Shown piece by piece: positions 2,585 through 23,101 of a stretch of 64,000 nucleotides of DNA. Origin of the DNA: Candidatus Curtissbacteria bacterium (GTDB lineage Bacteria > Patescibacteriota > Microgenomatia > Curtissbacterales > GWA2-41-24). Position 1 is the stretch's first letter, and each line of letters starts with the position of its first letter. The notes under the pieces were generated by a model, which made no database searches, was not told where the DNA came from, and saw nothing but the letters and a program-made list of their open reading frames with translations. A program made the position numbers and the translations under genes. Location of the stretch: the NCBI GenBank assembly GCA_038326365.1, contig JBBQJY010000001.1, forward strand, positions 12,128-76,127, in the 5' to 3' direction.

Positions 2585-2709
2585 CGAAAGACTTATCTAT
2601 TCTAACTTTTAAGTATTTATTTATCCAGTAAAGCTGTTTACCAATGATATTCGCCTTCCGCACTTTCAAGTTTTACTGCATTGGCGAAGAGATGTTAGAC
2701 TAAGTTAGA

Positions 2710-4457: not shown

Positions 4458-4465
4458 GAAAGAAC

Positions 4466-5130: not shown

Positions 5131-5160
5131 AGTGCAAAAACAAAGGGGGTGAAACAAAAT

Positions 5161-5568: not shown

Positions 5569-5599
5569 AGCAGGGCTCATCACGGCTCAGTTAGCAGTT

Positions 5600-5911: not shown

Positions 5912-5956
5912 AGCCGGTATTGCCAAGTACAAACTTCTCTCTGTTATACTAATTTC

Positions 5957-8900
5957 ATGCCTGTCCACAAGGACGTACTGTCCAAAGCAAAAAGGCCCAA
6001 GTCAAAGCCATGGCTAGGTATCATATTCATCGCTTTGCTCATATCCATCAACCTCTCAATTTTTACCTCAGCAGTACAAGCCGCTCCTGGAGGCGCCCCT
6101 GCTCCCCAACCCTGTTTTAACCCTGAACCCGTCTACGTTAAAGACGCAGGCGGTAATTTTGTTCTCGACGCCAACGGCCAAAAAGTAGAAAACCTTACGG
6201 ACAACTATTTAACGGACACCAATGGTGACCCTCTCGGACCGGAAGAAACAGACAATAAACTTACTAATCCTGAAGCACTCAAGTTCACAATTGTCTATAC
6301 AGGTCATAAAGGAGATCTTGTTCACTTAACAAAAAGAAATCAAGTTAAAGTCGATTTTTCCAAGCTTCAGGCAATTTTTGGCGCCCCCAACTCTAACTTT
6401 GCAGATGGCGGCGCTCAAAGCATCGACCATGCCCAAACAAACTTAATGGGTCTTAAAAATCCTCTCATATACCAGGGCCCGGCACAAAAAGCAGTATTCA
6501 AAGTGCTGACCGATGCTCAACGCATAAAATACGTTAAATACGTTTATGACAAACCCGAACTTGGAGAATCTGGCACAAAGTTTACAGATTACAACGGCCA
6601 AGATCCTAAAAACATTCACGAATTAGTGGGTGCATTTTCCCTACCCAGCCCACCTCCAGCCGGCACCACAGACCAGCATTGGCTGGATACTTGGGCAAAG
6701 TATTGGGAAAAACTACCCACTACGTACAACGAATTTACAATTGGTAAATTGGAGTTTCGAGAGCTACATGGCCTCCAATTAATCGAAAACGTCAAGAAAG
6801 GAGTCGACAATTCCTGCAGCAAATTTAATCCACTAAGAACTGTCGAATTTCCCGTACCCAACTTTTTTCGGACAGCCGCAACTTCAGGCGCACTAAACCA
6901 AGTTCTTGTCCCCAAAACCGCCCAAAGCGACCAGAATGATCTCTTGGACATCAAAGGTGCAGTTCTCGGTGTTAAAACTTCTACCTTGGATTTTTTACAG
7001 TATTGCATCAAATTTGCCCAAAAAAACCCTGTCTCCCAGGCCATCAAAAAAGTTATTAGCTTAGGAACCCAATCTATCAAAAGTTCTTATATTGCTTATG
7101 CGGCTTGGAACCTCAATTTGGCCAGCGTTGGTTCAAATTCAGCCCGCTTCACTTTCGACCCACCAGGCAACGGCAATTTTGGACTTGTTGCCAAAAACAA
7201 TAGTACAGGTCAAACATGGGACAGTGGTGCAATCTCAAATGGTACGTCGAGTGTCACCTTTAATGGCCTCACCCCCGGCAATTATCGCGCTGTGCTTATA
7301 TTTGCTACCTCCGAAATAAGCAATGCAGTCACTTTCGATATCAACTCGGCCGATCCTTCTCCTCAGCCAACATCAAGCTGGACACTTAGCGTTCAAGCCT
7401 CTCCCATTAGGGGTTCAAACGTCCGGTTTGACTACAATCCTGAAGCCAATAGCGTCATGGCGCTCATCGTCTATGACCAAAACAACAACACCGTTACCGA
7501 TTCAGGCTCAATAGACCGCAGCACAACTTGGACTTGGACAAATGCCAGACCAGGTGTTTACCACGCCCAATTATTCGCTTACGGTATCGCACCTGTTTCC
7601 AATGTTGTCAATTTTGAAGTCCAATGGCTCTTAAATAACCCCACTGTCGACATTAGACCGCTGGCCGGAATAAACAACGTCAACTTCACTTTTGCCCCCC
7701 AGGGCAACAACGACGGCGCCAATCTCTCTCTTTTAACTTATGTCAATACAACTCCCCGAGGCACTGCCTTTTATGACAGCGCCGTCTCTGGCGTAAATCT
7801 AAATGGTCAAACCTCCCATGCATTGCCTCTTAACAAAGTTCGCTGGGGAAAATGGGTGGCGGTCCTCATTAAAGGCTTAAGTGCAGTTTCCAATGAAGTT
7901 ACTTACGAAGTTCCCTACGTTTTAGAAGTAGAAAACAACTCGGGCTCCGTAACATTCCATTACGGACCCCCACTCCATATTGGCCCTCCTTCGGCAAATG
8001 CCATGGCCATTATTGTCAAAAGAAAATATATCGACAAAGTCGTCTGGGACAGCGGACCCCTAGCTCTTGATTCAACCTCTGTCCACTGGACCGATAACGC
8101 CCAACCCGGAGACATGGAAGCTTGTCTTCTTTACGATGGCAAGACCGAGCTCAGCGCCCACAATTTAGTTTGCAAGCCCATCAGCGTTTCCACCAATTAC
8201 CCCTGGAAAATTATTACTCTGGACAAAGACAAATCTTGCATAAAGGTTTCCGGCTCCGGCAAAGCAGGCAACGCTCCATTCTGCGCCATCTACCCAACTA
8301 AATTTGAACCCTCCGTCAAAGGCCAAACAAACGTTTTCCCGGGCGAATGTGCCGACCCTAACCCTAGCCGCTATAAACTAAACGACCAATCCAATGTCGT
8401 TTGCACATTCACTTTCGACTGGGACTCTTCAAAATTCGACGGTATTCCGGACAAAGAACTGCGTCTTCCCGCTTCCGGCCCCGGCAATTGGGACAAATGC
8501 GATTATGCGGGTGATTTCGTCACTTGCTATTTAACTGTCGGAATCTGGCCCGATTTTAGGGTTCCATTCTTAGCACAATCTTGGAACAACACTCAATTTT
8601 CAAATAAAGATGAGGTCTTGCCCACCCTTCAAGAAACAGGCCGTCCCGGCTATTACACATTTGGTCAACCAAAAGCTGTGGCCGAATATGATCCGCTGCA
8701 AGAGCTGGTCAACAACTGTGACCCGGCAATTCCCGGTTCCCAAGCCTGCAAGGACTTGGTCAATAAAGTCACCAGTGGTGATTACCCAACCAAATATCCA
8801 GGTCTTAGCGATTGTGTAACCAGTTACCTTATGCAATTACCCCAATTAGTTACCTGCATTAAAGGTGTCGCCAGCCTTATCCCCAAAAACCTGCCAGGTC

Positions 8901-9577
8901 AAGTCGATTCATCAACGCTGGGTGCAAGCACCGGACCAAGTGGATCTGTCCTAGGCACGGCTACAGACCAAAAAGAGCGTTTTATTGGTGCTGTGGACTG
9001 TGGTAAACATCTCACCCGCGATATTTCTCTCAAGCCCCTAGTCCTGCAAAAAGAATTAGGAGTTAAATTTGATTGCGACCTGTCAACATCAAGCGAAACA
9101 CCTCCCAATGGAGCACCCCCTCCTCCACCAGGAGGCGGTACGCCGACGCCGACGCCACCACCTCCTCCACCAGGAGGCGGTACGCCGCCAACTACAAATG
9201 ATTGTTCAGGGAAATATAACCTAAGCACAAACCCGCTTAACGACAATTTCGGCGACCCTTCTTGTGATTTTTCCGAAAGCCAACTTTATGATCTTCTCAG
9301 ATCTCTTGATCCAAGCCGTGCAGACTATTGGTTCTTTACCATAGTCCCTTGCGAAAGTGTTTATAACTCAAACAATTACAACGGGGCTTCTACTAGTGGC
9401 TCAGCATGGGGTCTATATCAAATGGGTCACGAAGCCTATCCGACGCTTGGAATCCCACGACAAATGAACTCCCCTTTCGATCGCGGTGATGTCGATTGGC
9501 GTCTGCAAACCAGCAATGCCGTAAACTATAATAATGGCCTGGGTAATACCTTTGACTACTGGGGTTGCGCAACATGA
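5957..9577 (+). CDS. Large membrane-anchored surface protein with a C-terminal lytic transglycosylase (SLT/VirB1-like) domain after a proline-rich linker
   Basis: N-terminal TM segment, then a roughly 1000-aa extracellular region rich in Thr/Ser/Asn. The linker is PPNGAPPPPPGGGTPTPTPPPPPPGGGTPP. The C-terminus CESVYNSNNYNGASTSGSAWGLYQMGHEAY matches the SLT catalytic E-S ... GLMQ pattern. Confidence 0.65.
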   Translation: MPVHKDVLSKAKRPKSKPWLGIIFIALLISINLSIFTSAVQAAPGGAPAPQPCFNPEPVYVKDAGGNFVLDANGQKVENLTDNYLTDTNGDPLGPEETDNKLTNPEALKFTIVYTGHKGDLVHLTKRNQVKVDFSKLQAIFGAPNSNFADGGAQSIDHAQTNLMGLKNPLIYQGPAQKAVFKVLTDAQRIKYVKYVYDKPELGESGTKFTDYNGQDPKNIHELVGAFSLPSPPPAGTTDQHWLDTWAKYWEKLPTTYNEFTIGKLEFRELHGLQLIENVKKGVDNSCSKFNPLRTVEFPVPNFFRTAATSGALNQVLVPKTAQSDQNDLLDIKGAVLGVKTSTLDFLQYCIKFAQKNPVSQAIKKVISLGTQSIKSSYIAYAAWNLNLASVGSNSARFTFDPPGNGNFGLVAKNNSTGQTWDSGAISNGTSSVTFNGLTPGNYRAVLIFATSEISNAVTFDINSADPSPQPTSSWTLSVQASPIRGSNVRFDYNPEANSVMALIVYDQNNNTVTDSGSIDRSTTWTWTNARPGVYHAQLFAYGIAPVSNVVNFEVQWLLNNPTVDIRPLAGINNVNFTFAPQGNNDGANLSLLTYVNTTPRGTAFYDSAVSGVNLNGQTSHALPLNKVRWGKWVAVLIKGLSAVSNEVTYEVPYVLEVENNSGSVTFHYGPPLHIGPPSANAMAIIVKRKYIDKVVWDSGPLALDSTSVHWTDNAQPGDMEACLLYDGKTELSAHNLVCKPISVSTNYPWKIITLDKDKSCIKVSGSGKAGNAPFCAIYPTKFEPSVKGQTNVFPGECADPNPSRYKLNDQSNVVCTFTFDWDSSKFDGIPDKELRLPASGPGNWDKCDYAGDFVTCYLTVGIWPDFRVPFLAQSWNNTQFSNKDEVLPTLQETGRPGYYTFGQPKAVAEYDPLQELVNNCDPAIPGSQACKDLVNKVTSGDYPTKYPGLSDCVTSYLMQLPQLVTCIKGVASLIPKNLPGQVDSSTLGASTGPSGSVLGTATDQKERFIGAVDCGKHLTRDISLKPLVLQKELGVKFDCDLSTSSETPPNGAPPPPPGGGTPTPTPPPPPPGGGTPPTTNDCSGKYNLSTNPLNDNFGDPSCDFSESQLYDLLRSLDPSRADYWFFTIVPCESVYNSNNYNGASTSGSAWGLYQMGHEAYPTLGIPRQMNSPFDRGDVDWRLQTSNAVNYNNGLGNTFDYWGCAT
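9119..9187 (+). repeat. Perfect 27-nt direct repeat (cctcctccaccaggaggcggtacgccg) occurring twice with a 15-nt spacer, encoding a PPPGGGTP linker repeat
   Basis: The two identical copies at 9119-9145 and 9161-9187 are read directly from the sequence. Confidence 0.8.
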
Positions 9578-10068
9578 ACCTGCCGCAAAATCAAAAAACA
9601 TTTCAAGTAATAATAATCGCCGTTGTCTTTTTCCTACTGGCCATGATTTTCGGCATTTTCCTAACCCAGACCGGCAAGAGCACAAAACCCGCAGCCACCA
9701 ATAAAATTGTGCCCCCTCAAGTTTCACCCGCATCTTTGCCAAAAGAAACAAAAGACCTCAAAAGCAAACTGATTTCAAAGCCTCTTAAAAATAACAAAGG
9801 CGATTTACTGCTTTATGAATCAACCAATTTTTATGTTGAATACATCACTTCTCCCCAAGTCTTTTTCGTCAAAATTGCAAAGGACGTCAACAACTCCAAA
9901 AAGCAGGCGACAGAATGGTTCATCGCACAAGGCGCAACCGGCCAAGATATGTGCAATCTGCCTGTTCGATTCATTCTATCTACTCTGGAAGCCCGCCAAG
10001 AAGACCCAAAATTTACAAGCCTGCCGGATGGCTGCACAGGACAACCGATTTCAAAACCCACTAAATAG
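9565..10068 (+). CDS. Hypothetical membrane-anchored protein (single N-terminal TM)
   Basis: N-terminal hydrophobic helix VIIIAVVFFLLAMIFGIFL. It overlaps the stop of the upstream gene. I recognise no domain. Confidence 0.45.
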   Translation: MRNMNLPQNQKTFQVIIIAVVFFLLAMIFGIFLTQTGKSTKPAATNKIVPPQVSPASLPKETKDLKSKLISKPLKNNKGDLLLYESTNFYVEYITSPQVFFVKIAKDVNNSKKQATEWFIAQGATGQDMCNLPVRFILSTLEARQEDPKFTSLPDGCTGQPISKPTK

Positions 10069-10830: not shown

Positions 10831-11021
10831 AGTGTTAACCTAAATTAAATATTTACTCCATCGCGGGGAAGCGTAGCGAAAATCTACCACTGTACCGCAA
10901 CGGTAACTCAAAAAAGAGAAGTCCGAATACCACGATGGCTAACTAGGTCCCGAGATAGGACACATGCCCATTGCGCACAATGATTGCAAGCCTTCTTGAG
11001 GACTATCAAGGAGGTTTTTTT

Positions 11022-12164
11022 ATGCTTGACAAGCTAGTTGCAAATCCACCGCCAAACATCTCTGAGGGCCAGTTTCGCTTTGATCCATCTCATCCCCCTC
11101 TGGCGAGTAAACAAATTGCTGAAGAACTAATTGATCCAATCCCCGAAGCAATGCTTGCCTACAATGTTCGATTCGATATTAAAGCTTACTGCAATTTGCT
11201 AGACCAAAAATCAACTCACACACACGAAGAATTCATAGCTAAGTTTAATTCCCTCAACGCTTTAACCAGAACAAATATCGAAACTTCAATTGCCGAAAGA
11301 TTCAACGCCGAAATACATCGAGCTTCATACAAACTCAAAGACGGCCAGCTAATCCATGAATCCTACGAGCAACCCTTTTTGGAAATAATCAGACGCGGTC
11401 AAGAATTTAGAGAAAAGTCTGGTTCCCAAGAGATCGATCGCGAAAGAGCCGAACTTGCCGGATTTAAAAAAGTCCAGGAGACACTCGCCAGTGAAAAGCT
11501 ATCAAATGACGCAAAAGTAATTGTCATCTCACCCGTCGGCGGCATTTACGGGCACAATTTCTACGATCTTTACCAAAGAACCGAAGATGGCAAAATTAAT
11601 ATGTCTCGTTACAGCTCAAAGAATTCCTATCAAAAATTTCTAGCAGCCGCTCGGCAAATAGACCCATTTTGTGAACTTCCCGATAATCCATCCGATGCTG
11701 ATTTCTTGGCTCGTCCACTCATAACTTATTTGCCGCCTGAACAAATTCAAACCCTCATGGATCCAGATGAAAAAACAATGAGCCAGGAAGAACTTGAAAA
11801 AATAAAAATAGCTTGGGCTCCAGCAATCGGAGGCTACATAGTAGATTTACTAAAAAATCCAAACACAATAACTCAAGAAAATTATTTAGATATCCTGAGA
11901 TTTGCCCAAGCGGCCAAAAACGGCCAAACTATTTCTGCCAAAGATATTCGCCAAATTTTCTTACCTAGAATAACAACAGCTTGCGGCATATCCGGTTCTC
12001 CCTATTCGGTTGCTGATTTCATAACCAACCCTAACCTCATCCAGGATAGGTATGGATCACTCCAAATCCATTGCCAGGAATGCAACACTAGTTATCCGCG
12101 AAATTTCGGTAAACTCGAAGAAAATTGTCGATACTGCGGCGGCACCAAGGGAATCGTTTGCTAA
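11022..12164 (+). CDS. Hypothetical cytoplasmic protein with a C-terminal CxxC...CxxC zinc-ribbon
   Basis: The ATG at 11022 is preceded by aaggagg at 11008-11014. The C-terminus is CQECNTSYPRNFGKLEENCRYCGG. Confidence 0.5.
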   Translation: MLDKLVANPPPNISEGQFRFDPSHPPLASKQIAEELIDPIPEAMLAYNVRFDIKAYCNLLDQKSTHTHEEFIAKFNSLNALTRTNIETSIAERFNAEIHRASYKLKDGQLIHESYEQPFLEIIRRGQEFREKSGSQEIDRERAELAGFKKVQETLASEKLSNDAKVIVISPVGGIYGHNFYDLYQRTEDGKINMSRYSSKNSYQKFLAAARQIDPFCELPDNPSDADFLARPLITYLPPEQIQTLMDPDEKTMSQEELEKIKIAWAPAIGGYIVDLLKNPNTITQENYLDILRFAQAAKNGQTISAKDIRQIFLPRITTACGISGSPYSVADFITNPNLIQDRYGSLQIHCQECNTSYPRNFGKLEENCRYCGGTKGIVC

Positions 12165-12217
12165 ACCTGCCTTGACTATCGCCTAAATTGTCCCTAATAT
12201 TGATTTAGAGTTTGTCC

Positions 12218-13993
12218 ATGCTTTCTGCCACAAAAATAAAACTGTTGGTTGTTTTACCATTTCTACTTCTTGGCCTCTTTTTTCAACCCAAAATTGCATC
12301 TGCTCAAAGTTACGGTTGGACAATATCGGTTGCTAATGTTTCTGGTACTTCAATTACCTATAATATTACGCCAAACTCCGGTAGCGGATCGGTACTTGTA
12401 TTAACAGACCTTCCATTGGGCGATCCCAACAGAGAATGTACTATTCCACCAAACGTATCCTCATTCACCTGCACTCACCCCGCGGGGACTCATTCGGTCG
12501 AAGTTACATATCTTGGCACTAAACAATCAGCAAACATCTCAGTAACAACTGGAGGAAGTGGTGGTGGTGGAGGAGGAGGAGGTGGAGGTGGAGGTGGACT
12601 CGCTAGCTGTGCTGCTCCGAATCCCGACACAACATCCCGCCAAGCACATGACCTCGTCCTTAAATGCGGTATAGCCAACGGCAGCATGGATAACCTTTAT
12701 TTCACCTTCAGTGAAACAGCCGGCATTCTGGACAGTCTTCAAGTCCTGGTCATGGGCAGTTCTCAACTTCACGAAGAATCAAACAAAGTCACCCAAAACA
12801 CTGGTGCTCTTGCAGGAGCCGCAACACTTGTTGCATCACTCTATAGCCACCCTCCGGCGTCTGGGGTTGAATATTTAGCCGGTGAATTCCAAAAGTTTAA
12901 CCCAACAAAAGACGCTTATGCCCAAACAGGAATCGGCTACGACACACTTCAACCTGTTCAAACCATTTGGGAACTTTTCAGAAACATTTCCTACCTCGGC
13001 TTCGTTATCGTTTTTGTTGTCATTGGTTTTATGATTATGTTCCGAGCACACATATCCCCCCAAGCAGTAGCTACGGTTCAAGATTCATTACCCAGGATCG
13101 TTATCGCACTTGTTCTCGTTACATTCAGTTACGCCATCGCCGGCTTAATGATCGATCTCATGTTCTTGTTTCTGAACGTCATTCTGGGTCTTCTGCCAGT
13201 AACTGACGCATCAAACATTGTCTTCAAAAAAAGTGTTTTCGGCGTCATAACTAGCTCTTGGAAAGACACTTTTGGAACTGTTTTTCATAATGTTCAAGAT
13301 CTTCTCAGTGAGATCATCAAGACTAAATTCTTTGTGGATAAAATTCTTGCCTTCTTCGGGGGCGGTATTGCAGCCCTCGTCGTCGGTATTGCCATGTTTT
13401 TCATAATGTTTAAGGTTTTCCTAATGCTATTAACTGCTTACGTTTCCATTATCCTCTTAACAATCGCAGCTCCATTCTTCTTCCTCTTGCAAGCTTTACC
13501 CGGTAACAACAATGGCATGACTTGGTTTAAACAAATGCTAGCAAATGTGGCCGTTTTCCCAACGGTTGCCATCATGTTCATTCTGGCTGGCTATCTCGGT
13601 GGCATTACGGCACTTGGTGGTAACGACAGTAACCCAGCAATCGGCCAGTCGAGCGGTAACATTGCAAAATTCCCTTTGCTTGCAGGCGATCTGGACCCTA
13701 AAGTTTTGGGGCATCTGGCAGGTATTGGCATTCTACTCATGACGCCAGCCGCGGCTCAACTCGTTAAGGACGCACTCGGTGTCAAGGCTGTAGGGGGCGG
13801 CGCAGCAGGCGCAGCAGCAGCTGGGGCTCTAGGCGCAGGCGCAGCAGTTGCGGGAGCTCCATTTAGGCCAATTCAAGGTGGCTTTGGCAAGGCTACGTCG
13901 GACTATGCTTCAAAAGGACTCTCAACAACAGGCAGGGCAGGGTTTAATAAAGTCAAAGGGGTATTAGGAAGAGGTCCCGGAGGTGATACCTAA
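12218..13993 (+). CDS. Polytopic membrane protein, candidate VirB6/TrbL-like T4SS channel component, with an N-terminal secreted domain, a polyglycine linker and a Gly/Ala-rich tail
   Basis: Signal peptide MLSATKIKLLVVLPFLLLGLFFQPKIASAQS, a GGSGGGGGGGGGGGGGG linker, then at least five hydrophobic helices. It sits next to the pilin, hydrolase and VirB4 genes. I did not recognise a VirB6 signature directly, so this call is by context and topology. Confidence 0.4.
   Translation: MLSATKIKLLVVLPFLLLGLFFQPKIASAQSYGWTISVANVSGTSITYNITPNSGSGSVLVLTDLPLGDPNRECTIPPNVSSFTCTHPAGTHSVEVTYLGTKQSANISVTTGGSGGGGGGGGGGGGGLASCAAPNPDTTSRQAHDLVLKCGIANGSMDNLYFTFSETAGILDSLQVLVMGSSQLHEESNKVTQNTGALAGAATLVASLYSHPPASGVEYLAGEFQKFNPTKDAYAQTGIGYDTLQPVQTIWELFRNISYLGFVIVFVVIGFMIMFRAHISPQAVATVQDSLPRIVIALVLVTFSYAIAGLMIDLMFLFLNVILGLLPVTDASNIVFKKSVFGVITSSWKDTFGTVFHNVQDLLSEIIKTKFFVDKILAFFGGGIAALVVGIAMFFIMFKVFLMLLTAYVSIILLTIAAPFFFLLQALPGNNNGMTWFKQMLANVAVFPTVAIMFILAGYLGGITALGGNDSNPAIGQSSGNIAKFPLLAGDLDPKVLGHLAGIGILLMTPAAAQLVKDALGVKAVGGGAAGAAAAGALGAGAAVAGAPFRPIQGGFGKATSDYASKGLSTTGRAGFNKVKGVLGRGPGGDT
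12553..12600 (+). repeat. Simple (GGN)n repeat encoding a 16-residue polyglycine run
   Basis: ggaggaagtggtggtggtggaggaggaggaggtggaggtggaggtgga, read directly. Confidence 0.75.
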
Positions 13994-13994
13994 T

Positions 13995-16900
13995 TTACCT
14001 GGCAAATACATATTTCAATCCTTGTCGGAAAAACTCAGAACCCCCAAATAATGGCCCTTGCCACCAAATTCTCTTTGCACTTTCAGAAACACCCATTCGC
14101 GCATAAATATCGGCATACTCAGCCAAAAACCTAGCATTTCTAACAGGCAAAATACCGGGCAAGCCTCCCCAGCCCAGATATTCGCGCTTCATCCAGTCTT
14201 TATACTTCACATTTAATCGATTACTTCGAACGGCAAGGTCGATAATTGTCTCCGTATCCGCATGAGGCATATTGTCTACTTCCCCCCACCAAGATTTCCA
14301 ATAAGTACCCAGCCTCTGATGCATCGGTATCACCAGCTTCATCATCGGCTGCAGTCTAACTTCTCGCTTAGAATAAAAATTCTCCAAAGAGAATAACTGT
14401 AAAAACTCCGCATTGTTTGGCTGCTGCAAATAGTGTTGCAGCTTTGGCTTTTCAGGACTCATGAAATTCATCATGGCAGCCCTGTCACCATAAAGATCAA
14501 TCCATCTATATTTCCAGCTATTATCAACTCTAAAAAAATGACTCCACTTACAGTTATCAAACTTAACTTCACCCTGATCCAGGGCTTCTGCGAGGATTGC
14601 CGACTTTGCCCAACCCATTTCTTCCTTATTACCTTTATCGAATTTTTTGATGTTCTTAAAACTATTTGTTTTTCTTTTGATAACTTCTTTTGCCGTTTCA
14701 TTCAATAGCCCGTCAGAATTAATACCTTGTTCCTCGTCCAAAAGGTCGCTGGCAAATCGAACCAGAGTTCGGTTTTGCGGCAACAAGTTTCCATTTTCCC
14801 CAAGCATCTCGTCTTGCATGACATAGTTTGCCTTTTCTACCTTACCGCGAGATTCGTCTATAAAAAATTCCCAGGCGTGGTCAACCATTCTTCCATAGAA
14901 AAAGTCTGTAGATTGGTTGTACACATATCCAGATACTCTCCCCTTGCCACCAGCCGGATTATCTATATTTGGATCCCAAACCCTGATGCCGTCATAATCA
15001 CTCCAAGCCATAACCCAAGCAAGCCTATGAGCATTGTTTACAACCTGGTCGACCAAACCCGTGTCCACCATTTCGATTATTTGTTTATCGCTAAGATTCC
15101 ATTTTTCTTTGTTCTTAACCAGCTCCTCAATCAGTCCACCCCCCGTTGCTACAAGCTCGACGTTTCCATTTGCTTGCTCGACTTTATATTCCCGCTTATT
15201 CCCTACCATCTCACTCTTCCTTAGCCCAACAGCCTCCGCTTGCTCTTTAATTAACCCAAGCATAGTGTTCTCCCTATACCATTTACCTATAGCTTTTTTC
15301 ATATTATCAACACTATAATCATCACCAAGTTCACCTTGTATGGACTCGAGCGCAGCTCTTTCTTCGTCGGTTTTGCCTTTAATTTTCCTGTCTTTCGTCC
15401 AGCTCTCCACAAAGTTCATAAGTAGACGCTCTTTATGGAATCTACCCATGTAAATATTCATTCCGGCGTCCAGCAAATTTACAGAAAGATGCTTCCCTTG
15501 AACATCTTTATTAAATCTTTCAAAATAAACCTCGAAAGTATTGTCCTTAAGGCCCTGAACTACTTTGGAAACAGTCTCAGGATTCATGCTTGCATGCTCC
15601 ATCGTGCTATAGAACTGGTTAATTGCAATAACTGACTCGTACTTTTCCGTCAGTTGCTTCCTGAGCTCAATAGCCCTTTCTTTTTCCTCACCCTCAAGCG
15701 AATCAACAGGTATTCTCAAAACCACCTGTACTGCTCTTTGAATTTTTTGTGATAATTGCTGTTCACCAAAATCAGAGCTTTCAAGAAGCCTCAAAATCCC
15801 GTCTACTGTTTTTTCGCTTTCTTTCCAATCATTTGGCGGCAATTCCGAAGAAATATCCGAAAATCTCAAGTCAAATCCCTGACGATAAACTTGCGCCTTC
15901 CATTTCAATAACTCCGCAAAATCGGGATTTGCATCGACTTCCGTCTCAACAGTTTCGTCAAATATTTCCCGGTAGTCATCGGCTCTACCATAGATACCCC
16001 CCTCTTGTATGGAGTTGACTTGAGAAGCTGAATCTTTTATTCTCCTAAAAAGTGCAGCCAATTGCTCTGGCTTGCTCCTCTTCTCGAGTTCTCGGAATTT
16101 ACTATCTACATGAGCCCTTGCCTCTTCAACAATTTTCTCATCGTCGTCGGACACAATAGACTGAAAAAGATTCAGTTTTTCAGACCCGAGTAATGTGTAT
16201 TTTGATTTAAGTTCGTTAATAGCTAGCGACATTTGTGACAATATGTCATAATTCTTAGGATTTTCGGGGTCTGCAAGAATCATACGAGCTTCTTCGATTT
16301 GGCCTCGATATTCTGTCAATAGTATTCCGTATTGATCGCGCATGCTGGTTTCTCCATTTTCTGTATCCACTCCCTTTTCTTTCAGATACAACAGTCGCTT
16401 AACGACCTCTTCAAGATTTACATGAACTGGAACACGTCTCTTTTCAATCCTACCTTCGTTATTTGGTACCCTCTTGACTACATACATTTCTAAAGGTTCG
16501 TCCCAGTAAATTTCACCGTTTCCCCCACGAATGGCTGGTAGGTTTTTCCCTATCTCGGTGCTTTTAGGCTTGCCCGTCCAGCCAGTCAGCTCAACTGCTC
16601 CATGCTCGGCAGCCCATTTCCAGCGCCTAACGACAGCCCAATTTTTCCACTTATCTTTAGGTACAGTAATTTCGAATCCCCGACCGCGAAAAAAAGCCTC
16701 AGCTGCCGCAGGATCGTCTATATATTCTCCGCGCTTCGTGGTTTCGATTATGATCCTAGGTAGAGCATCGGCGTAAACCAAAATAGCCCCCTCTTCTTTT
16801 GCCAGTGCTTCCATTTTTTCTTCTGTTACTACCTTTAGCTTCTTTCTGATTTCATCTGCCTTCAGAGCAGACTCGCCACGGTGTTTGCGCAAGGATTCTG

Positions 16901-17213
16901 CTATTACCTCTTCAGAGTTCATGCCCACAATCTTAGATTGATCTGCTCCGCTCTCAATAAGCGCAGTTCTCAAACTACTTAAGCTTTCACTGGAAACAGC
17001 TACTTGGTTTGAAGTGTCAAAAGCCTCACTCAATTTCTCAGTGTGTTCTCGGGCATTAAATTGTTTGTTTGGTTTCTTTTTAGCACCTCCGTCACCAGGT
17101 TCAGCTCCTTTGTTTTCGTCTGGAGTCCGCAAGCTTCCATCAGGCATAGTATTTCCCCCTTTATACTCAGCGTACAAGCTGGAGGGGTCAAATGCAATAA
17201 AATCTTCTTTCAT
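13995..17213 (-). CDS. Large (1072 aa) soluble protein of unknown function, rich in charged and Trp residues, inside the T4SS-like locus
   Basis: The ORF is uninterrupted with no TM segments, no Walker motifs and no recognisable catalytic motifs. It is divergent from the ATPase-winged-helix regulator gene. Confidence 0.55.
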   Translation of the reverse strand: MKEDFIAFDPSSLYAEYKGGNTMPDGSLRTPDENKGAEPGDGGAKKKPNKQFNAREHTEKLSEAFDTSNQVAVSSESLSSLRTALIESGADQSKIVGMNSEEVIAESLRKHRGESALKADEIRKKLKVVTEEKMEALAKEEGAILVYADALPRIIIETTKRGEYIDDPAAAEAFFRGRGFEITVPKDKWKNWAVVRRWKWAAEHGAVELTGWTGKPKSTEIGKNLPAIRGGNGEIYWDEPLEMYVVKRVPNNEGRIEKRRVPVHVNLEEVVKRLLYLKEKGVDTENGETSMRDQYGILLTEYRGQIEEARMILADPENPKNYDILSQMSLAINELKSKYTLLGSEKLNLFQSIVSDDDEKIVEEARAHVDSKFRELEKRSKPEQLAALFRRIKDSASQVNSIQEGGIYGRADDYREIFDETVETEVDANPDFAELLKWKAQVYRQGFDLRFSDISSELPPNDWKESEKTVDGILRLLESSDFGEQQLSQKIQRAVQVVLRIPVDSLEGEEKERAIELRKQLTEKYESVIAINQFYSTMEHASMNPETVSKVVQGLKDNTFEVYFERFNKDVQGKHLSVNLLDAGMNIYMGRFHKERLLMNFVESWTKDRKIKGKTDEERAALESIQGELGDDYSVDNMKKAIGKWYRENTMLGLIKEQAEAVGLRKSEMVGNKREYKVEQANGNVELVATGGGLIEELVKNKEKWNLSDKQIIEMVDTGLVDQVVNNAHRLAWVMAWSDYDGIRVWDPNIDNPAGGKGRVSGYVYNQSTDFFYGRMVDHAWEFFIDESRGKVEKANYVMQDEMLGENGNLLPQNRTLVRFASDLLDEEQGINSDGLLNETAKEVIKRKTNSFKNIKKFDKGNKEEMGWAKSAILAEALDQGEVKFDNCKWSHFFRVDNSWKYRWIDLYGDRAAMMNFMSPEKPKLQHYLQQPNNAEFLQLFSLENFYSKREVRLQPMMKLVIPMHQRLGTYWKSWWGEVDNMPHADTETIIDLAVRSNRLNVKYKDWMKREYLGWGGLPGILPVRNARFLAEYADIYARMGVSESAKRIWWQGPLFGGSEFFRQGLKYVFAR

Positions 17214-17308
17214 GTCGACAAGTTTAATAGAGAAAGCTCCATTTGCCTTGACTCTTGCCTAACAATTAGCTAACAAGAAGAAAAAGACCTTATAATTGGA
17301 ATTACGCA

Positions 17309-18586
17309 ATGGGAACATTTGAATTACAATTTCCAGGAAATTTTCGCCAGGCAGAAATCGACAAGATTTTGACCTTTGTACAAACCGGCAAATTTTGCCA
17401 ATTAATTTCTACCCCTGGAAGCGGAAAAGCGACTCTTCTGAGGCTGTTGGCCTACAATCCCAATGTTTTAAAATTTCATTTGAAAGAAAAGGGAGCTTCT
17501 ATTAATTTCATTTATCTAAATCTTTTAGACCTTGAAAACTACCAAGAGATTGAAATTCTCAAATACATCCTGCTTGCTCTGAACCAAAAAGCGCAAAGCG
17601 ATGACCTTCTGGCACTAAACAAACAATTAATGGAAATTGTTCACCAGCAAGCAAGCCTTGGCCAAACTACAGTTTTTCTCTTTGACCATTTTGACGAGTA
17701 TCAGAATCAGTTACCTCCGTCGTTTTTTCAGCTTCTAAGGAGTGCGAATAGACAAGCAAGATACAAATTTTCCACCGTCTTTGCAACCAGAAGAGATCTA
17801 GCAGAGTTAGTTGACCCAACAACGATCAAAGATTTTTATGATTTTTTTACTGACAACGCTATTTATATGAAGATCTATGACCCATCCGCCATAGAATTTA
17901 TGGTCTCGCAAATTGAGGCTATATTTAAAAAGAAGATCCCCATAGCGGACAAAGCAAGCATTATTCACCAAACGGGAGGCCATACTAAACTAACGAAGAT
18001 AGTGACAGAAATGCTTATACGCCAAAATCTGTCTCTAGATAATCAGCTGCTTACGAAACCAACAATTTCTTCTACCCTCCAAGAGCTGTGGCTTTTCTTA
18101 ACAGCCCAAGAACAGCAGACCCTCTATCAAATTGCCAATGACGAATACAAAAATCAGCCAGACGAAACAAATAAACTAGAAGCCTTTGGTCTTGTCAAAC
18201 GAAACCAAACACCAGCTAAGGGTTTTGAATTAACCATCCCTTTATTTAAAGAATACATAAAGAACACTATCCCTCAGCTCACCCCAGAAAAGATTACATA
18301 TAACGAGCAAACCAGAGAGATAACCAAAGGTGCAAAAATAATCTCTGATTTGCTTTCGCCTCAAGAAAACCGCTTGCTCAAGTTTTTAATCGAAAATCAA
18401 AACAAGGTTATTCAAAGAGACGAAATCATCAAAGCCGTTTGGCTAGACTCTCAAAATGCCCAAGGCATCTCCGACGAGGCAATTGATCAAATGATTTTTA
18501 GGCTCAGAAAAAAAATTGAAGATGATCCCAACCAACCAGAACGACTGTCAACCGTAAAAGGTCAAGGTTTTCGCTTCAAAGCTTAA
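17309..18586 (+). CDS. Putative transcriptional regulator: N-terminal P-loop NTPase domain fused to a C-terminal OmpR/PhoB-type winged-helix DNA-binding domain
   Basis: Deviant Walker A ISTPGSGKATLL and Walker-B-like TTVFLFDHFDE. The C-terminus QENRLLKFLIENQNKVIQRDEIIKAVWLDS...IDQMIFRLRKKIEDDPNQPERLSTVKGQGFRF is a textbook OmpR-family trans_reg_C fold. Confidence 0.6.
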   Translation: MGTFELQFPGNFRQAEIDKILTFVQTGKFCQLISTPGSGKATLLRLLAYNPNVLKFHLKEKGASINFIYLNLLDLENYQEIEILKYILLALNQKAQSDDLLALNKQLMEIVHQQASLGQTTVFLFDHFDEYQNQLPPSFFQLLRSANRQARYKFSTVFATRRDLAELVDPTTIKDFYDFFTDNAIYMKIYDPSAIEFMVSQIEAIFKKKIPIADKASIIHQTGGHTKLTKIVTEMLIRQNLSLDNQLLTKPTISSTLQELWLFLTAQEQQTLYQIANDEYKNQPDETNKLEAFGLVKRNQTPAKGFELTIPLFKEYIKNTIPQLTPEKITYNEQTREITKGAKIISDLLSPQENRLLKFLIENQNKVIQRDEIIKAVWLDSQNAQGISDEAIDQMIFRLRKKIEDDPNQPERLSTVKGQGFRFKA

Positions 18587-18590
18587 TACT

Positions 18591-20420
18591 TTATGCAGAA
18601 AACTTAGCCTCTGCTTCTTGCGCTTTTTTGCGCATCTCCAGAAGCTCTTCCGGGTTTGTTGTGACTAATGAGTGCTCCTCAGGTGAAGCAATTACTCGAA
18701 TCGCCACGTGATTTGGCCCGGCAAAAAATATTCCTTCTCCAACGTCTGCCGCCAAAAGCAAATGCCGCTCTCCTTCAGTCAGATAAAAAACGTCAGTCAG
18801 TTTATCAATAGCAGCCGGCGATTGCTTCATCAGTATCTGAATTGACGAGTTAGTAACAATAGCCTTCCCGTAGTCGGTTTCCAAAAAGTCTTCGACGTCC
18901 TGAGAAATTGTTGTCAGGCCTAGGTAATATTTTCTTGCCCGCTTGGCAATGGAGTACATAAACGTTGCGCTGTCCGGATGCTGCATCATATACCAAGCCT
19001 CGTCCACAATTAATATTCTCTTCCTGATGTCATTTTTAATGCGCGTCCAGATAAAGTCTAAAATTAGATATATGGCAATAGGTCGCAAAGATTCTTCCAT
19101 GTTTTTAATTGAAAAAACAGTAAAAGTATTCCTAATGTCTAAGTTTGAATGCTGGTTAAAAATACCGATTAAGGACCCCTTAACGAACTTCTCGAGCCGG
19201 TCCGCAAGTCCCTTGGCTGCTTCTTCCTCCATCCCCAAAAAAGCTTTATAAAGGTCTTCCATCAGCGGTGGCTCATTTTTCTGACTAGCCGGCTCCGGCG
19301 TTATTCCTTTAGCTTTATAAGTTGCAACCAGAGCCCTGTCTAAAATTGCGTCCTCAGTCGGCGTCATCGCACCCATTATCACTTTAAAAAATCCGTGCAG
19401 TGAAAGTATTTTGAGCCCCAATTCGTTTTCACCCTCTTCGTATACTCCCGAAAGGTCAAATGGATTAATCTTCACCTGGCTATCAAAATCAAAAGAAATG
19501 TATTCCCCGCCAATTGCCTCACAAAGATTTTTGTATTCTTCCTCCGGGTCAATGACAATTATTTCTGTTCCGAACATCAAAGACCTCAAGGCTTCCAGCT
19601 TAACCATGTAAGATTTTCCGGCACCGGACTTCGCAAAAATTACCGAATTAGCATTTTCTTGAGTAAACCGATCAAAAATTACCAGCGACCCGTTGTGTTC
19701 GTTAATCCCATACATAATGCCTGTGCTGGAAGTTAAGGACGAAGAAATAAATGGGAATGTTGTCGCCAAGCTAGTCGTATCCATATTTCTGGTGATATAT
19801 AGGTGGTCTGTCGCCTGTGGCAACGTAGTTTTAAACGCTTCTTCCATTTGCAACGAAGCGTGTTTGGGAACCAAAAGCAGTGCTCCCATTGTCGACTCCA
19901 CTTGCTTACAAATTGTATTTAACTCTTCCAATGTTTCGGCCGGAACTGAAACATAAAGCCCGAATTGGAAAAAACGCTCAGAACCTTTTACCAACTCTTC
20001 CTGTAAAACTTGCGCATCCTCCAAAGCCGCCGAAACGGTCGGATCAATTACGTGGCCATGCTGAATATCAGAAGCAATCGTCGCCTCCATTTCCGTAATT
20101 TTGCGCTTCAAGTCATCAAGCACACCTTTGGCCTCAACCGGATACTGATACATGGATATTTCCAATGTGTGTTCGAAGTTAATAAGCGGCGAGAGCCAAT
20201 TAGCCTGCACATATCGAGGATAACCAACTACGAATAGTGTCCGCCAATAAGTCGATCCGATTTTGATGTAGTCGAAATCAATCTCAATGGCCGGCGGCGC
20301 AATAATGTCTTTGACTGAGACCACTCCTCGAGCCAAAGTACTAGCCCATTGTTGCTCTTTTGCAGTCAAACCCAAATCGGCATTTTTTTCCTTTTTCCCA
20401 AAGATATTAATTATATTCAT
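18591..20420 (-). CDS. virB4: VirB4/TrbE/ConE-family T4SS ATPase
   Basis: Walker A SVIFAKSGAGKSYMV and the VirB4-type Walker B RILIVDEAWYMM. The N-terminus DYIKIGSTYWRTLFVVGYPR is typical of Gram-positive-type VirB4. Length is 609 aa. Confidence 0.8.
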   Translation of the reverse strand: MNIINIFGKKEKNADLGLTAKEQQWASTLARGVVSVKDIIAPPAIEIDFDYIKIGSTYWRTLFVVGYPRYVQANWLSPLINFEHTLEISMYQYPVEAKGVLDDLKRKITEMEATIASDIQHGHVIDPTVSAALEDAQVLQEELVKGSERFFQFGLYVSVPAETLEELNTICKQVESTMGALLLVPKHASLQMEEAFKTTLPQATDHLYITRNMDTTSLATTFPFISSSLTSSTGIMYGINEHNGSLVIFDRFTQENANSVIFAKSGAGKSYMVKLEALRSLMFGTEIIVIDPEEEYKNLCEAIGGEYISFDFDSQVKINPFDLSGVYEEGENELGLKILSLHGFFKVIMGAMTPTEDAILDRALVATYKAKGITPEPASQKNEPPLMEDLYKAFLGMEEEAAKGLADRLEKFVKGSLIGIFNQHSNLDIRNTFTVFSIKNMEESLRPIAIYLILDFIWTRIKNDIRKRILIVDEAWYMMQHPDSATFMYSIAKRARKYYLGLTTISQDVEDFLETDYGKAIVTNSSIQILMKQSPAAIDKLTDVFYLTEGERHLLLAADVGEGIFFAGPNHVAIRVIASPEEHSLVTTNPEELLEMRKKAQEAEAKFSA

Positions 20421-20429
20421 ATCGAAGAT

Positions 20430-21527
20430 TTATCCTATTTTCTGCCCCCCAACAACGTTTTGCACTGGAACAGTCGCAATTCCGGCGTTTACCGCACCTC
20501 GCATCTGGCTGGCTCGGGCAATTGCTTCCTGTAAGTCATTTAGCGCTTGCGACGATTGGCCTGGGACCGAAGTGACAGCTGGCACAATAGGCGGCACATC
20601 TCCTTCTCCTGCAGCACTAGTTACGGACGTAGGCAAGATAATTGGTTGGGGCGTCGCAATTGGCGAAGGCACTTCGCCGACAAGCGGGCTTGCGGCGCTT
20701 TGGGCCAATATTGGCTCCCCTGCAACTCCGGTATTGGCAATAACCGGAGGTTGAGCATACTGACCCGCACCTGATTCAATTGTAGGCTCAGCAACAACAG
20801 CAACCCGCACATCAGGCGCTTGAATCGGCACAGGCTCGGGCGCAGGTGTTGGAACCTCCACCGCCGGCTCCACCAGAGGAGTCGTGTAGCTTGCAGCATC
20901 AAGTATTACTCTCTGAGTTCCTGTCGGAGCAGGATTATAAATATCGTAATATAATTCGATTAGCTCTTGAGTCGTCAACTGTCTCGAGAAAAGTCCAAGT
21001 CGTGCAGTTTGCTTAATAATATGATCTCTCTTTGGCGCAAGCGCTGATTTGGCGTCAGCAATGAGCTCCGCCTTACCCTTGGCATTGTGAGAATCTGATT
21101 TCTTAAAACTCTTGACACCTAGCTCCAAAGGCGAAAAGTGCAATATCAAATAAAAACGCTTATCTAGAATTGTCTTTTGTTGAACTGTTGATTGAATAAA
21201 TTCCCTATAACTCTTTATCTGCAATCTGAGATCCGGATTGGGCTGATTTCTCTCAGCCTCAACTAAATGCTGATAGTAAGCTGTAATATCGGCTTTTTTT
21301 GAACGAATCAAAACCTGCAAAGGGAAGGTTAGTGAATTAAGTAGCGCGCCATAAGCATAAATCGTCGCATCCTGTTCGGCTTCCGAAAGAATATCAAAAT
21401 TTACGGCAGTTGTAGACATCACCATTGAAACCCAACCTGTTTTTATAATCACCAAGTCATCAGTAATGTCCTCAATATCCAAGTGATCCTGGGTGGAAGC
21501 CTTAATCTTATCGCCTGCAGAAGCCAT
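20430..21527 (-). CDS. Hypothetical protein translationally coupled between the VirB3-like and VirB4 genes, with a C-terminal tail rich in Pro/Ala/Val
   Basis: There is a 1-nt overlap with the upstream gene and a 9-nt gap to virB4. No TM segment. The PAPEPVPIQAP low-complexity tail is evident. Confidence 0.45.
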   Translation of the reverse strand: MASAGDKIKASTQDHLDIEDITDDLVIIKTGWVSMVMSTTAVNFDILSEAEQDATIYAYGALLNSLTFPLQVLIRSKKADITAYYQHLVEAERNQPNPDLRLQIKSYREFIQSTVQQKTILDKRFYLILHFSPLELGVKSFKKSDSHNAKGKAELIADAKSALAPKRDHIIKQTARLGLFSRQLTTQELIELYYDIYNPAPTGTQRVILDAASYTTPLVEPAVEVPTPAPEPVPIQAPDVRVAVVAEPTIESGAGQYAQPPVIANTGVAGEPILAQSAASPLVGEVPSPIATPQPIILPTSVTSAAGEGDVPPIVPAVTSVPGQSSQALNDLQEAIARASQMRGAVNAGIATVPVQNVVGGQKIG

Positions 21528-23101
21528 TAATTTTTCACTTGTCCCTGAAGCCCTAAGGGGGCCAAGATCTCTCCTTTCAAACTTATTGATGTCGGCACAA
21601 ACGATGCCTTCTCACTCTCAATTTCTATCGTGTAATTACCGTCAGAAAGCGGTGTGGCCGACAAAAATTGGCCCAACTTGTTTGTTTTTAAGGCGCGAAT
21701 CGGAATTCCACCAGCATCCCGAACAACCAGTACTGCTCCTTCAAGAGGCGTTCCAATGGAATCTGTTACCATCCCTGAAAGCACATTAGGATTACTGGTT
21801 AGAGGAATTATTTGGGCACCAATATTGTTGGCCACACTTTTAATCTGCTTTTTATCTGTTATCGAGAATTTTGTTTGATCATCATCTTTTCGCTTAGGCG
21901 CCTTTTGGGTCCCCTGGGCAACTGCAGCAACCATCCCACCCACAGCCTCCGGTGCTCTGACTTGGGCTTTGGGTAAAACCTGACTAAGATCGGCTTCTGT
22001 CAATTTGTTTGCAAACTGCACACTGCCCACAGTAGAGTTGGTTTCGTTGGGTAAAACCACCTGTGGTGTATCGTCCTCAAAATTAAACCTCCTTGCCAAC
22101 TCGTCAGAAATTTCAAACCGACGCTCACCTCGTATTGGCAGCTTAGAGAGATCAAAATTCTCAGGCGGAGCAAAGTGCAATTTTCTTACCCTAGTCTGAC
22201 CAACTCCCCGAACCAATCTTATTTTGTTGTCAGGCTCTTTTAAGGAGATAATATTGTCCACAGAAAAGTTTGTGTCAGATGCCAAATGGGAAAGTGGTGG
22301 CGACTTTTTTGGAACCGACTCCATCCTTCGACGTCTCAGTCTATCTTCCAGTCCTTTGATAACAAATGGTTGGGCATGTTTTGCAATTCTTGGTTCGGTT
22401 GCGCCAACTATCGGCAATTGTTTGCGATTCCCAACAACAACTTTCGACTTCTCGTCAAATGCTCGAATTGCAACTGGTGTTTCAATTTTGATGCTGTCCG
22501 GCCCAACCTCGCGCGGCACAGGTTGACCAACTTTTCTGCTTACTCCGCTATTCGTATTTTTTGCGCTTGGCCAAATAATCGGAGGCGGGACGCTTCCTGC
22601 CCCCACATCGTCTCCTCCCAAGTCCAACTGAAAAATTGCTTTGTCCTCACGCATGTCGAGCGGTGACTCGTTATCCTTAGGAAGAGATCTCAAATAAGCA
22701 ATCAGCCTTTCGCGCCCTCTTTCGGTTATTTCTTCCGGAATTTTTTGCTCTTGTGTCTGGGGACGTATAACTACACTCAGAAATTCTGGTAAATTTCTCT
22801 CCTTTACCCAAATTCGTTGCGTGGGCGCAAAAATTGCGTGAATAAAAGCAACGATCCACTTGTCAAATGGCCTTCCTTGCACCGGAACCAAAGCAACGAA
22901 CAACCCAATTCCGCCAATCAATACAGAAAGAGGAATCCTAACTATAGCAGCGGTTTGGGAGAAGAAAATAAAACCCGCTACAACCATCGGTCCTACTAAA
23001 AACATAAATTGCCTGACTGTTAAGTTGCCAAAAAGTTTAAACTGAAATGAAGCTATGTGCTGCGGGACAGGATGTTGTTCCATAGGTTTGAGTACCAGCA
23101 A
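21527..23101 (-). CDS. Membrane protein with a VirB3-like N-terminal two-TM region fused to a large extracytoplasmic region that ends in a CarboxypepD_reg-like beta-sandwich
   Basis: The N-terminus FGNLTVRQFMFLVGPMVVAGFIFF resembles the VirB3 L-x-RPA-hF-GVP motif. It is the first gene of the operon ending in virB4. Confidence 0.4.
   Translation of the reverse strand: MLVLKPMEQHPVPQHIASFQFKLFGNLTVRQFMFLVGPMVVAGFIFFSQTAAIVRIPLSVLIGGIGLFVALVPVQGRPFDKWIVAFIHAIFAPTQRIWVKERNLPEFLSVVIRPQTQEQKIPEEITERGRERLIAYLRSLPKDNESPLDMREDKAIFQLDLGGDDVGAGSVPPPIIWPSAKNTNSGVSRKVGQPVPREVGPDSIKIETPVAIRAFDEKSKVVVGNRKQLPIVGATEPRIAKHAQPFVIKGLEDRLRRRRMESVPKKSPPLSHLASDTNFSVDNIISLKEPDNKIRLVRGVGQTRVRKLHFAPPENFDLSKLPIRGERRFEISDELARRFNFEDDTPQVVLPNETNSTVGSVQFANKLTEADLSQVLPKAQVRAPEAVGGMVAAVAQGTQKAPKRKDDDQTKFSITDKKQIKSVANNIGAQIIPLTSNPNVLSGMVTDSIGTPLEGAVLVVRDAGGIPIRALKTNKLGQFLSATPLSDGNYTIEIESEKASFVPTSISLKGEILAPLGLQGQVKN

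Follow-up and report, generated by a model that had tools for sequence, protein, structure and literature searches.

Which proteins do the type IV secretion systems (T4SSs) of Patescibacteria carry, and which proteins serve them? These systems are essential in the only genetically tractable Patescibacterium, where their role has been described as completely unknown (PMC11665869, PMC10633639), and neither a substrate nor a coupling protein or relaxase has been linked to them (PMC12102498). The question takes a concrete form in a 64,000-nucleotide (nt) stretch of the genome of a Candidatus Curtissbacteria bacterium (contig JBBQJY010000001.1; this whole 64-kb stretch is referred to as the window, and positions are counted from its first letter). 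Within its T4SS locus lies a gene for a large soluble protein that resembles nothing annotated, hereafter called the target:

13995..17213, minus strand: target coding sequence, 1072 amino acids (aa) plus a stop codon, ATG start; founding member of an unannotated family specific to T4SS loci.

We describe the tight genomic coupling of this family to the T4SS of one VirB4 clade, and we tentatively read the protein as a dedicated substrate of that system.

The target open reading frame (ORF) was confirmed as a real gene encoding a soluble protein. It translates without interruption, and a run of 1072 codons without a stop would arise by chance with a probability of about 4e-23. The N-terminus reads MKEDFIAF, compared with MKENFIAF in a 49%-identical homolog (P0002), and the ATG start is supported by the conservation of both the N-terminus and the upstream promoter region. 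No transmembrane (TM) segment was detected in the protein (the maximum Kyte-Doolittle [KD] mean over 19 residues was 0.82), nor was the h-region of a signal peptide. An initial annotation, made from the sequence alone, had described an uninterrupted frame for a cytoplasmic protein without a recognizable NTPase, relaxase, or nuclease motif. Both descriptions hold, as Walker A, HExxH, DEAD, and HUH-like (H-hydrophobic-H) motifs were all absent from the target and no profile matched it. The richness in Trp and charged residues that it had noticed was likewise borne out: Trp accounts for 2.43% of the protein and charged residues for 31.1%, versus medians of 0.7% and 20.8% for the 27 other window proteins, and the last 250 aa contain 11 Trp residues (4.4%, versus 1.8% in the remainder). 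Neither internal repeats nor a paralog in the window was found. Codon bias and guanine-plus-cytosine content are the same as those of the neighboring genes and therefore give no sign of recent transfer or extreme expression.

As the initial annotation had placed it, the gene lies between a VirB6-like gene and a regulator gene, the latter followed by the core operon of the secretion system:

12212..13993, plus strand: polytopic "VirB6-like" protein, 593 aa, with a signal peptide and at least five hydrophobic segments; invariant neighbor of the target.
17309..18586, plus strand: regulator, divergent from the target, with an N-terminal P-loop region (AAA_22/STAND-like) and a C-terminal OmpR/PhoB-type winged helix (Trans_reg_C).
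18591..23101, minus strand: T4SS core operon, encoding a PrgI/VirB3-like protein, a TrsD-like protein, and the VirB4 ATPase.

The target and the VirB6-like gene are convergent, with their stop codons 1 nt apart. The label "VirB6-like" refers to topology and position only, and no VirB6 profile match was obtained for the 593-aa protein in profile searches.

Association of the target with T4SS genes was evaluated in two directions. All nine loci retrieved through target homologs (L001 to L009), which include homologs down to 22 to 29% identity, carried PrgI, TrsD, VirB4, and/or VirB6-like genes beside the homolog; four related loci were retrieved with the seven closest target sequences. For the reverse test, 80 metagenome loci were collected via VirB4, and their six-frame ORFs were scanned with the hidden Markov model of the family and with the neighboring proteins of the window. 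VirB4 was at least 78% identical to that of the window in 37 of these loci, 19 of which include the VirB6-like gene. A family member abutted that gene in convergent orientation in 19/19 cases, at a distance of -7 to +103 nt (usually 13 nt or less). The other 18 loci provide no counterexample, because 2 of them have a target copy truncated by the contig end and 16 are cut on the relevant side. Among the 43 loci in which VirB4 was 66 to 74% identical, 12 include the VirB6-like gene, and a family member abutted it in 1 of the 12 (L049). VirB4, TrsD, PrgI, and the VirB6-like protein were still recognized in these more distant loci; in the remaining 11, the slot convergent to the VirB6-like gene was occupied by unrelated ORFs of 399 to 1037 aa, mostly without TM segments. 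The slot of L074 contains a 479-aa ORF followed by a 1712-aa ORF, and in L089, for which the VirB6-like gene was not recovered, an 1800-aa ORF lies upstream of PrgI. The order VirB6-like, target, PrgI, TrsD, VirB4, and M23 hydrolase was found in L016, L018, L029, and other loci.

No target homolog was found outside T4SS loci in any sampled context, and the family had no match in plasmids, phages, or viral contigs. The evidence is strong that the target is tightly coupled genomically to the T4SS of one VirB4 clade and is not a housekeeping gene. The initial annotation had proposed to look for co-occurrence with virB4, which was found in 9/9 homolog-seeded and 19/19 informative VirB4-seeded loci. 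Homologs in genomes free of T4SS genes and kinship with a housekeeping family, which it had named as signs to the contrary, were both looked for, and neither was seen. Toxin-antitoxin and abortive-infection modules (HTH/Gp49, HicB, AbiEi/AbiEii, PIN) are inserted in L008 (positions 1959-2634) and L009 (positions 7572-9786 and 14724-15388). These insertions sit between VirB4 and the target or beside the VirB6-like gene, and the junction between the target and the VirB6-like gene is never split.

The family became visible only with sensitive methods. A word-indexed homolog search returned the target itself and one relative (49% identity), whether a single sequence or a profile was used. A HMMER scan with a two-sequence profile, exhaustive over 1.84 billion cluster representatives, yielded 93 proteins at an E value of ≤1e-3 and 57 at ≤1e-30, most of which were 1000 to 1400 aa long. 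All names among the members were "hypothetical protein" (e.g., OGE10488.1 from a Curtissbacteria metagenome-assembled genome [MAG]). The named source genomes were Patescibacteria/Curtissbacteria MAGs and one "Gammaproteobacteria" MAG, which is probably misbinned. Locus L003 (CAZBKB010000026.1), labeled "uncultured Gammaproteobacteria," contains a complete T4SS block of CPR (candidate phyla radiation) type, with a VirB4 90% identical to that of the window; its label is probably a binning error. Searches of Pfam, NCBIfam, PHROG, and PADLOC provided no match for the target, and no Pfam domain was found in 42 family members; the only family match to the target, to SspC (E value of 0.002 over 77 residues), was treated as noise. 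Only coiled-coil or designed-helix noise was obtained in PDB sequence searches with the single target and with a 72-sequence profile. Our literature search found no paper describing the family.

Across 72 sequences (approximately 20% identity), conservation is concentrated in residues ~350 to 1072, with a peak at residues 721 to 830. N579, E787, G790, D906, D910, and R950 are invariant, and W438, E478, R566, D570, N600, W645, G653, R911, S948, and R953 are nearly so. AlphaFold2 with the 72-sequence alignment generated a model with a predicted local distance difference test (pLDDT) score of 87 and a predicted template modeling score of 0.74, whereas the pLDDT score was 38 with two sequences. 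The predicted architecture is as follows:

17067..17213, minus strand: residues 1-49, predicted to be disordered (pLDDT < 50); Lys/Gly/Pro-rich and poorly conserved.
16374..17054, minus strand: residues 54-280, a small alpha/beta region with a disordered loop (212-232); the least conserved part of the family.
14151..16349, minus strand: residues 289-1021, an all-alpha body with a single beta-hairpin (743-764), carrying the invariant and near-invariant residues.
14724..15053, minus strand: residues 721-830, the most conserved block, with the consensus NAY..W..WSdYDgIRIY ... GR.iDH.wEF...E.RGR ... LPQNR.
13998..14150, minus strand: residues 1022-1072, a long C-terminal helix or tail that follows the motif LGWG..PG..PxR..RQ..E.

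The structural comparison suggested by the initial annotation was carried out with this model. Foldseek gave no hit at an E value of ≤0.001 against the PDB (best E value, 0.015; TM-scores of ~0.1) or against BFVD (best E value, 0.034). The fold of the model is thus confidently predicted and is without a match in either database. The target is a T4SS-associated protein, which is a known kind, of a family and a fold not described before.

Transcription of the target appears to be independent of the secretion machinery. In no locus does the gene share an operon with structural genes, and in all of them its own promoter lies 7 to 12 nt before the ATG. In the window, the following elements were identified:

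17247..17275, minus strand: putative operator, TGTTAG-N5-TGTTAG-N5-(a)GTCAAG, with an 11-bp period, ending ~34 to 35 nt upstream of the ATG.
17221..17226, minus strand: -10-like hexamer TAAACT, 7 nt before the ATG.

There is no Shine-Dalgarno sequence before the target ATG, and this absence, together with a -10 element only 7 nt away, implies that the mRNA would be leaderless. The regulator gene stands beside the target in the window and in L001, L003, L005, L008, L012, L014, L015, L024/25/27, and L053. Their promoters combine three direct-repeat units (TGTWAG-N5-TGTTAG-N5-TATCAAG) with a weak -10 element (TAnnCT) downstream, 7 to 9 nt before the ATG; in L024/25/27, the repeat is located further upstream, at -119. 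Loci without the regulator have a consensus extended -10 element (TGnTAAAAT or TGATATAAT) 8 to 12 nt before the ATG in place of the repeat, and the promoter has therefore been swapped. The presence of the operator covaries perfectly with that of the regulator across loci, and it precedes the target in all nine loci where the two genes adjoin. In L008, transposed toxin-antitoxin genes have come between the regulator and the target, and the repeat has remained on the target side. The window contains a single exact copy of the pattern, so that the visible target of the regulator there is the target gene together with the regulator itself. The DNA sites bound by winged helices of the OmpR/PhoB and SARP types are direct repeats, spaced at ~11 bp and adjoining the -35 region. 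From this binding habit and the placement of the repeats, we infer that the regulator binds them and activates the target promoter.

Over deep divergences, no gene of the locus is less conserved than the target. Median identities to the proteins of the window were 83% for VirB4, 65% for TrsD, 53.5% for the VirB6-like protein, 45% for PrgI, 33% for the M23 hydrolase, and 28% for the target. The low value for the target is mostly due to its variable N-terminal half, and in closer pairs its divergence is about equal to that of the VirB6-like protein and PrgI. The VirB4 ATPase is 80 to 92% identical across loci whose other genes are 25 to 65% identical. In a comparison of L029 with L042 (target at positions 3376-6894 and 2574-6119, respectively), the synonymous divergence (pS) of the target was 0.455, versus 0.65 to 0.75 in neighboring T4SS genes, which suggests a recent recombination or exchange of the gene between lineages.

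What the protein does can be approached from these features. The initial annotation had considered a secreted effector or an assembly factor plausible; membership in the secretion locus stands, and the evidence on the choice between the two points both ways. We slightly favor, with a probability of roughly 0.4, a dedicated T4SS substrate or effector, encoded in the locus and separately regulated, over a subunit of the machine. The lean toward a substrate comes from the gene's own regulated promoter, the swapping of slot content between clades, and the invariant polar residues. The median identity of the target (28%), lower than that of VirB4 (83%) and the other machine proteins, is likewise what a cargo would show. 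On this reading, a leaderless transcript of the gene itself would be translated in the cytoplasm. The adjacent STAND-type ATPase/winged-helix activator would, in roughly half of the loci, switch the promoter on by binding the three 11-bp-spaced TGTTAG-like repeats next to the -35 region, and in the remaining loci the consensus extended -10 promoter would drive the gene constitutively. The product would then be handed to the VirB4/VirB6-like channel, probably via its conserved C-terminal tail, and the all-alpha body with its polar residues (N579, N600, E787, D906, D910, and R950) would act on or in the host cell. The invariant and near-invariant polar residues may form an active site, in which case the protein would possibly be an enzyme. 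Effector delivery is also the leading speculation for the T4SS of Patescibacteria, for which no substrate is known (PMC11665869, PMC10633639).

Two groups of established substrates were considered for comparison. CagA of the Helicobacter pylori cag T4SS is a cytoplasmic protein of ~120 kDa that is encoded in the island under its own promoter, is lineage restricted, and has a largely helical, unprecedented fold. It evolves much faster than its machine; for CagA, translocation has been established, as have the chaperone (CagF) and the host targets. CagA is the closest analog in logic, the target likewise being large, cytoplasmic, encoded in a T4SS island, transcribed from its own promoter, helical, and faster evolving than the machine. 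However, no sequence or fold similarity between the two was detected, the host here would be prokaryotic, and many members of the target family have a hydrophobic C-terminal helix. XVIPCD-type effectors (X-Tfe) of the Xanthomonadales combine variable bodies with a conserved C-terminal module and occur in many dispersed copies. The target is like them in that its ~70-aa tail is common to one otherwise unrelated slot protein, that of L062. It is unlike them in that the tail occurs in 1/11 nonfamily slots, there is no adjacent immunity gene, the locus lacks VirD4, and each locus has one copy.

Several observations weigh against a translocated substrate. No type IV coupling protein (T4CP/VirD4) that could recruit a cytoplasmic substrate is encoded in the T4SS locus or elsewhere in the window, although T4CP homologs in Patescibacteria are usually encoded away from virB4 (PMC12102498). 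An adjacent immunity-like gene is also absent, the neighbors being the regulator and the convergent VirB6-like gene, with no small ORF between. Occurrence as one copy in strict 1:1 synteny would fit a machine subunit at least as well as a substrate. The ratio of nonsynonymous to synonymous substitution rates (0.14 to 0.20, at saturated synonymous sites) is like that of the VirB6-like gene, and no diversifying selection was seen; by this estimate, selection on the target is purifying overall and similar to that on its neighbor. The C-terminal helix has a KD value of ≥1.2 in 37/75 members and is TM-like (≥1.6) in 12/75, and such a hydrophobic helix would tether the protein to the producer's own membrane. 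The charge pattern that the initial annotation had proposed as a secretion signal amounted to a net charge of +3 in the final 30 aa, which is weak, and of +4 in the final 50 aa; no such signal is defined for the T4SSs of monoderm or CPR bacteria. Finally, translocation itself is something that we infer.

In the C-terminal tail, a family-wide motif (LGWG..PG..PxR..RQ..E) precedes a helix, and in 42/75 full-length members the most hydrophobic stretch of the whole protein falls within the final ~63 aa. In the window protein and its nearest relatives, the tail is aromatic-rich, not hydrophobic (19-residue KD maximum, 0.64), and reads IWWQGPLFGGSEFF..YVF. When tested for a tail anchor (a single TM helix in the last ~50 residues), the window protein fails and part of the family passes. 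The slot protein of L062 was assigned the ~70-aa tail module by hhalign (probability, 79%; E value, 1.7e-5) and hmmsearch (E value, 1.3e-4). A C-terminal secretion module common to many slot proteins was considered and dropped, as L062 was the only case among the 11 loci with a nonfamily slot protein. C-terminal hydrophobic segments also occur in two large ORFs, one in L074 and one in L089, that lie in the slot or adjacent to it.

A serious and still tentative rival is that the target is a clade-specific cytoplasmic subunit of the inner-membrane platform of the T4SS, docked by its C-terminal helix beside the VirB6-like protein, VirB4, and TrsD. It would serve as a scaffold, gate, or substrate receptor and would replace the coupling protein or the large hydrophilic domains of "extended VirB6" proteins. 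Fixed 1:1 synteny points toward such a membrane-proximal subunit, as does the hydrophobicity of the C-terminal helix in roughly half of the members. Its presence in 19/19 loci as a single copy in a fixed position abutting the VirB6-like gene, the conserved tail motif followed by a helix that is the hydrophobic maximum in 42/75 members and TM-like in 12/75, purifying selection at the level of the VirB6-like gene, and the lack of a T4CP in the locus all agree with this idea. So do the C-terminal hydrophobic segments of the unrelated slot or near-slot proteins in L062, L074, and L089, of which that in L062 has the tail module. Against it, the window protein and its closest relatives lack the hydrophobic tail (KD value, 0.64), and separate transcription with a dedicated regulator would be unusual for a stoichiometric subunit. 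Moreover, the target is replaced by unrelated proteins of 399 to 1037 aa in sister clades while its presumed partners stay conserved, and neither PDB sequence searches nor Foldseek searches detected similarity to any solved T4SS component.

Known components can be set beside this rival. The hydrophilic domains of extended VirB6 proteins and SEML1_0011/SEML1_0013 of Southlakia epibionticum are, like the target, large, helical (ARM-like), cytoplasmic, and associated with VirB6. The role of the extended VirB6 hydrophilic domains is not known (PMC12857230). SEML1_0011, whose gene lies between those for VirB6 and PrgI, is essential, is 998 aa long, and includes an ARM-like helical region (Wang 2023, Tables S1/S2); it also fits the subunit reading. 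The target occupies the equivalent slot (the order in S. epibionticum is SEML1_0013, 0012, 0011, 0010, 0009, 0008, and 0007), and the likeness is one of position, in which these proteins are its nearest analogs. In contrast to extended VirB6, the target is a separate polypeptide without TM segments, encoded convergently to the VirB6-like gene. SEML1_0007 was rejected as the Saccharibacteria counterpart of the target because it corresponds to the M23-type hydrolase. The target might also be regarded as an analog of T4CPs (VirD4/TraG/PcfC), that is, a channel partner on the cytoplasmic face in a locus without a recognizable T4CP. Membership in the T4CP family itself was rejected, as the target has no P-loop NTPase domain or Walker A motif, no N-terminal TM anchor, and no Pfam match. 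An assignment to VirB6/TrbL/PrgH was rejected as well, since the target has 0 TM segments versus the at least 5 required; the neighboring 593-aa protein is the polytopic one.

It is unlikely that the target is a cytoplasmic enzyme or factor outside secretion whose place beside the VirB6-like gene is due only to the lack of intergenic space between the two. A metabolic or processing enzyme induced by host contact would be of this sort, possibly handling material imported by the T4SS, and T4SS-mediated uptake has been proposed for Patescibacteria (PMC11665869). The invariant polar residues would suggest catalysis, the gene has its own regulator and promoter, and the zero-length convergent junction (-7 to +13 nt in most loci) would by itself resist separation. 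A hint at a nutrient role comes from a cobalamin riboswitch directly upstream of the operon that encodes p397 and the VirB6-like protein, with counterparts in the same syntenic place of three other loci:

10849-10940, plus strand: cobalamin riboswitch (AdoCbl-II/RF00174), 38.3 bits versus a gathering score of 36.5; the core motifs align.
10971..12164, plus strand: p397, a 397-aa cytoplasmic protein.
L001, 8257-8332, minus strand: cobalamin riboswitch, 28.5 bits.
L002, 11764-11960, minus strand: cobalamin riboswitch, 31.7 bits.
L007, 13086-13168, minus strand: cobalamin riboswitch, 36.9 bits.

A cobalamin switch in a CPR T4SS locus was unexpected; our literature search found no report of one. 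The acquisition of cobalamin or other nutrients may be what this part of the system responds to or serves. A function outside secretion is disfavored by the lack of any homolog outside T4SS loci in the sampled contexts and by a family distribution that tracks one VirB4 clade. Besides the target, p397 is the one conserved cytoplasmic protein here that has no family; its last ~25 residues are weakly similar to the zinc knuckle of ribosomal protein uS14/S29 (E value, 0.12).

It is very improbable that the target replaces the missing relaxase as a strongly diverged relaxase or pilot protein that processes DNA. Its large size, cytoplasmic location, and N-terminal alpha/beta domain, in a locus derived from conjugation, would suit that role, but the target has no HUH motif or His triad and no conserved His or Tyr in residues 54 to 280 (the least conserved part), no MOB or Rep Pfam match was found in 42 members, no DNA-binding fold was recovered, and the conserved part is the all-alpha C-terminal body. 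A conjugative relaxase of the MOB families was rejected likewise (no H-hydrophobic-H, no conserved N-terminal His or Tyr, and no Pfam match).

The substrate reading can be taken further, to a version that we regard as doubtful. The target would then be the first identifiable translocated substrate of a Patescibacteria T4SS, namely, an all-alpha enzyme of a new fold that is injected into the host and induced by the STAND/winged-helix regulator, with each CPR clade keeping a different cargo in the slot adjacent to VirB6. Alternatively, the T4SS might import host material, with the target receiving it in the cytoplasm, a version that would accord with the cobalamin riboswitch of the neighboring channel operon.

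The remainder of the T4SS locus contains the following genes, of which the pilin array resembles those reported for Microgenomatia and Saccharimonadia:

18591-20420, minus strand: VirB4 ATPase, 609 aa.
20430-21527, minus strand: TrsD-like N-terminal part of VirB4, 365 aa.
21527-23101, minus strand: PrgI/VirB3-like protein.
23364-25931: M23 hydrolase.
2710-5911, plus strand: array of four to six divergent VirB2/T4SS_pilin paralogs.

VirB4 is split in the window, into the TrsD-like protein of 365 aa and the ATPase of 609 aa. In L007 (positions 1896-5522), a VirB4 homolog of 1208 aa has an intein (Intein_splicing plus LAGLIDADG_3) inside the ATPase. Small ORFs of the 23S_rRNA_IVP family (PF05635) recur beside the T4SS core operon (L007, positions 5591-5947; L009, positions 2613-3002). 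Some of the pilin paralogs have long N-terminal extensions (356 and 226 aa), and between the pilins and p397 lie a 1206-aa anchored surface protein and then two small bitopic proteins. The locus lies beside the replication origin, with dnaN, dnaA, and yidC beyond the M23 hydrolase. Housekeeping genes (LeuRS, TsaD, PyrG, GroEL, and others) make up the remainder of the window, which encodes neither a coupling protein nor a relaxase. The locus agrees with the published description of Patescibacteria T4SSs as MPF_FATA-like systems near dnaA, with TrsD and pilin arrays, no relaxase, and a T4CP only rarely nearby (PMC12102498).

For the biology of these bacteria, the target family provides a concrete handle on the question of effector export, import, or some other role in T4SSs of the Microgenomatia type. 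It is conserved, specific to T4SS loci, and separately regulated, its predicted fold is unmatched, and its invariant polar residues form a short set. The exchange of slot content from clade to clade gives a simple comparative rule by which equivalent candidates may be found in other CPR classes, and the regulator/operator pair and the cobalamin riboswitch suggest input signals for the system.

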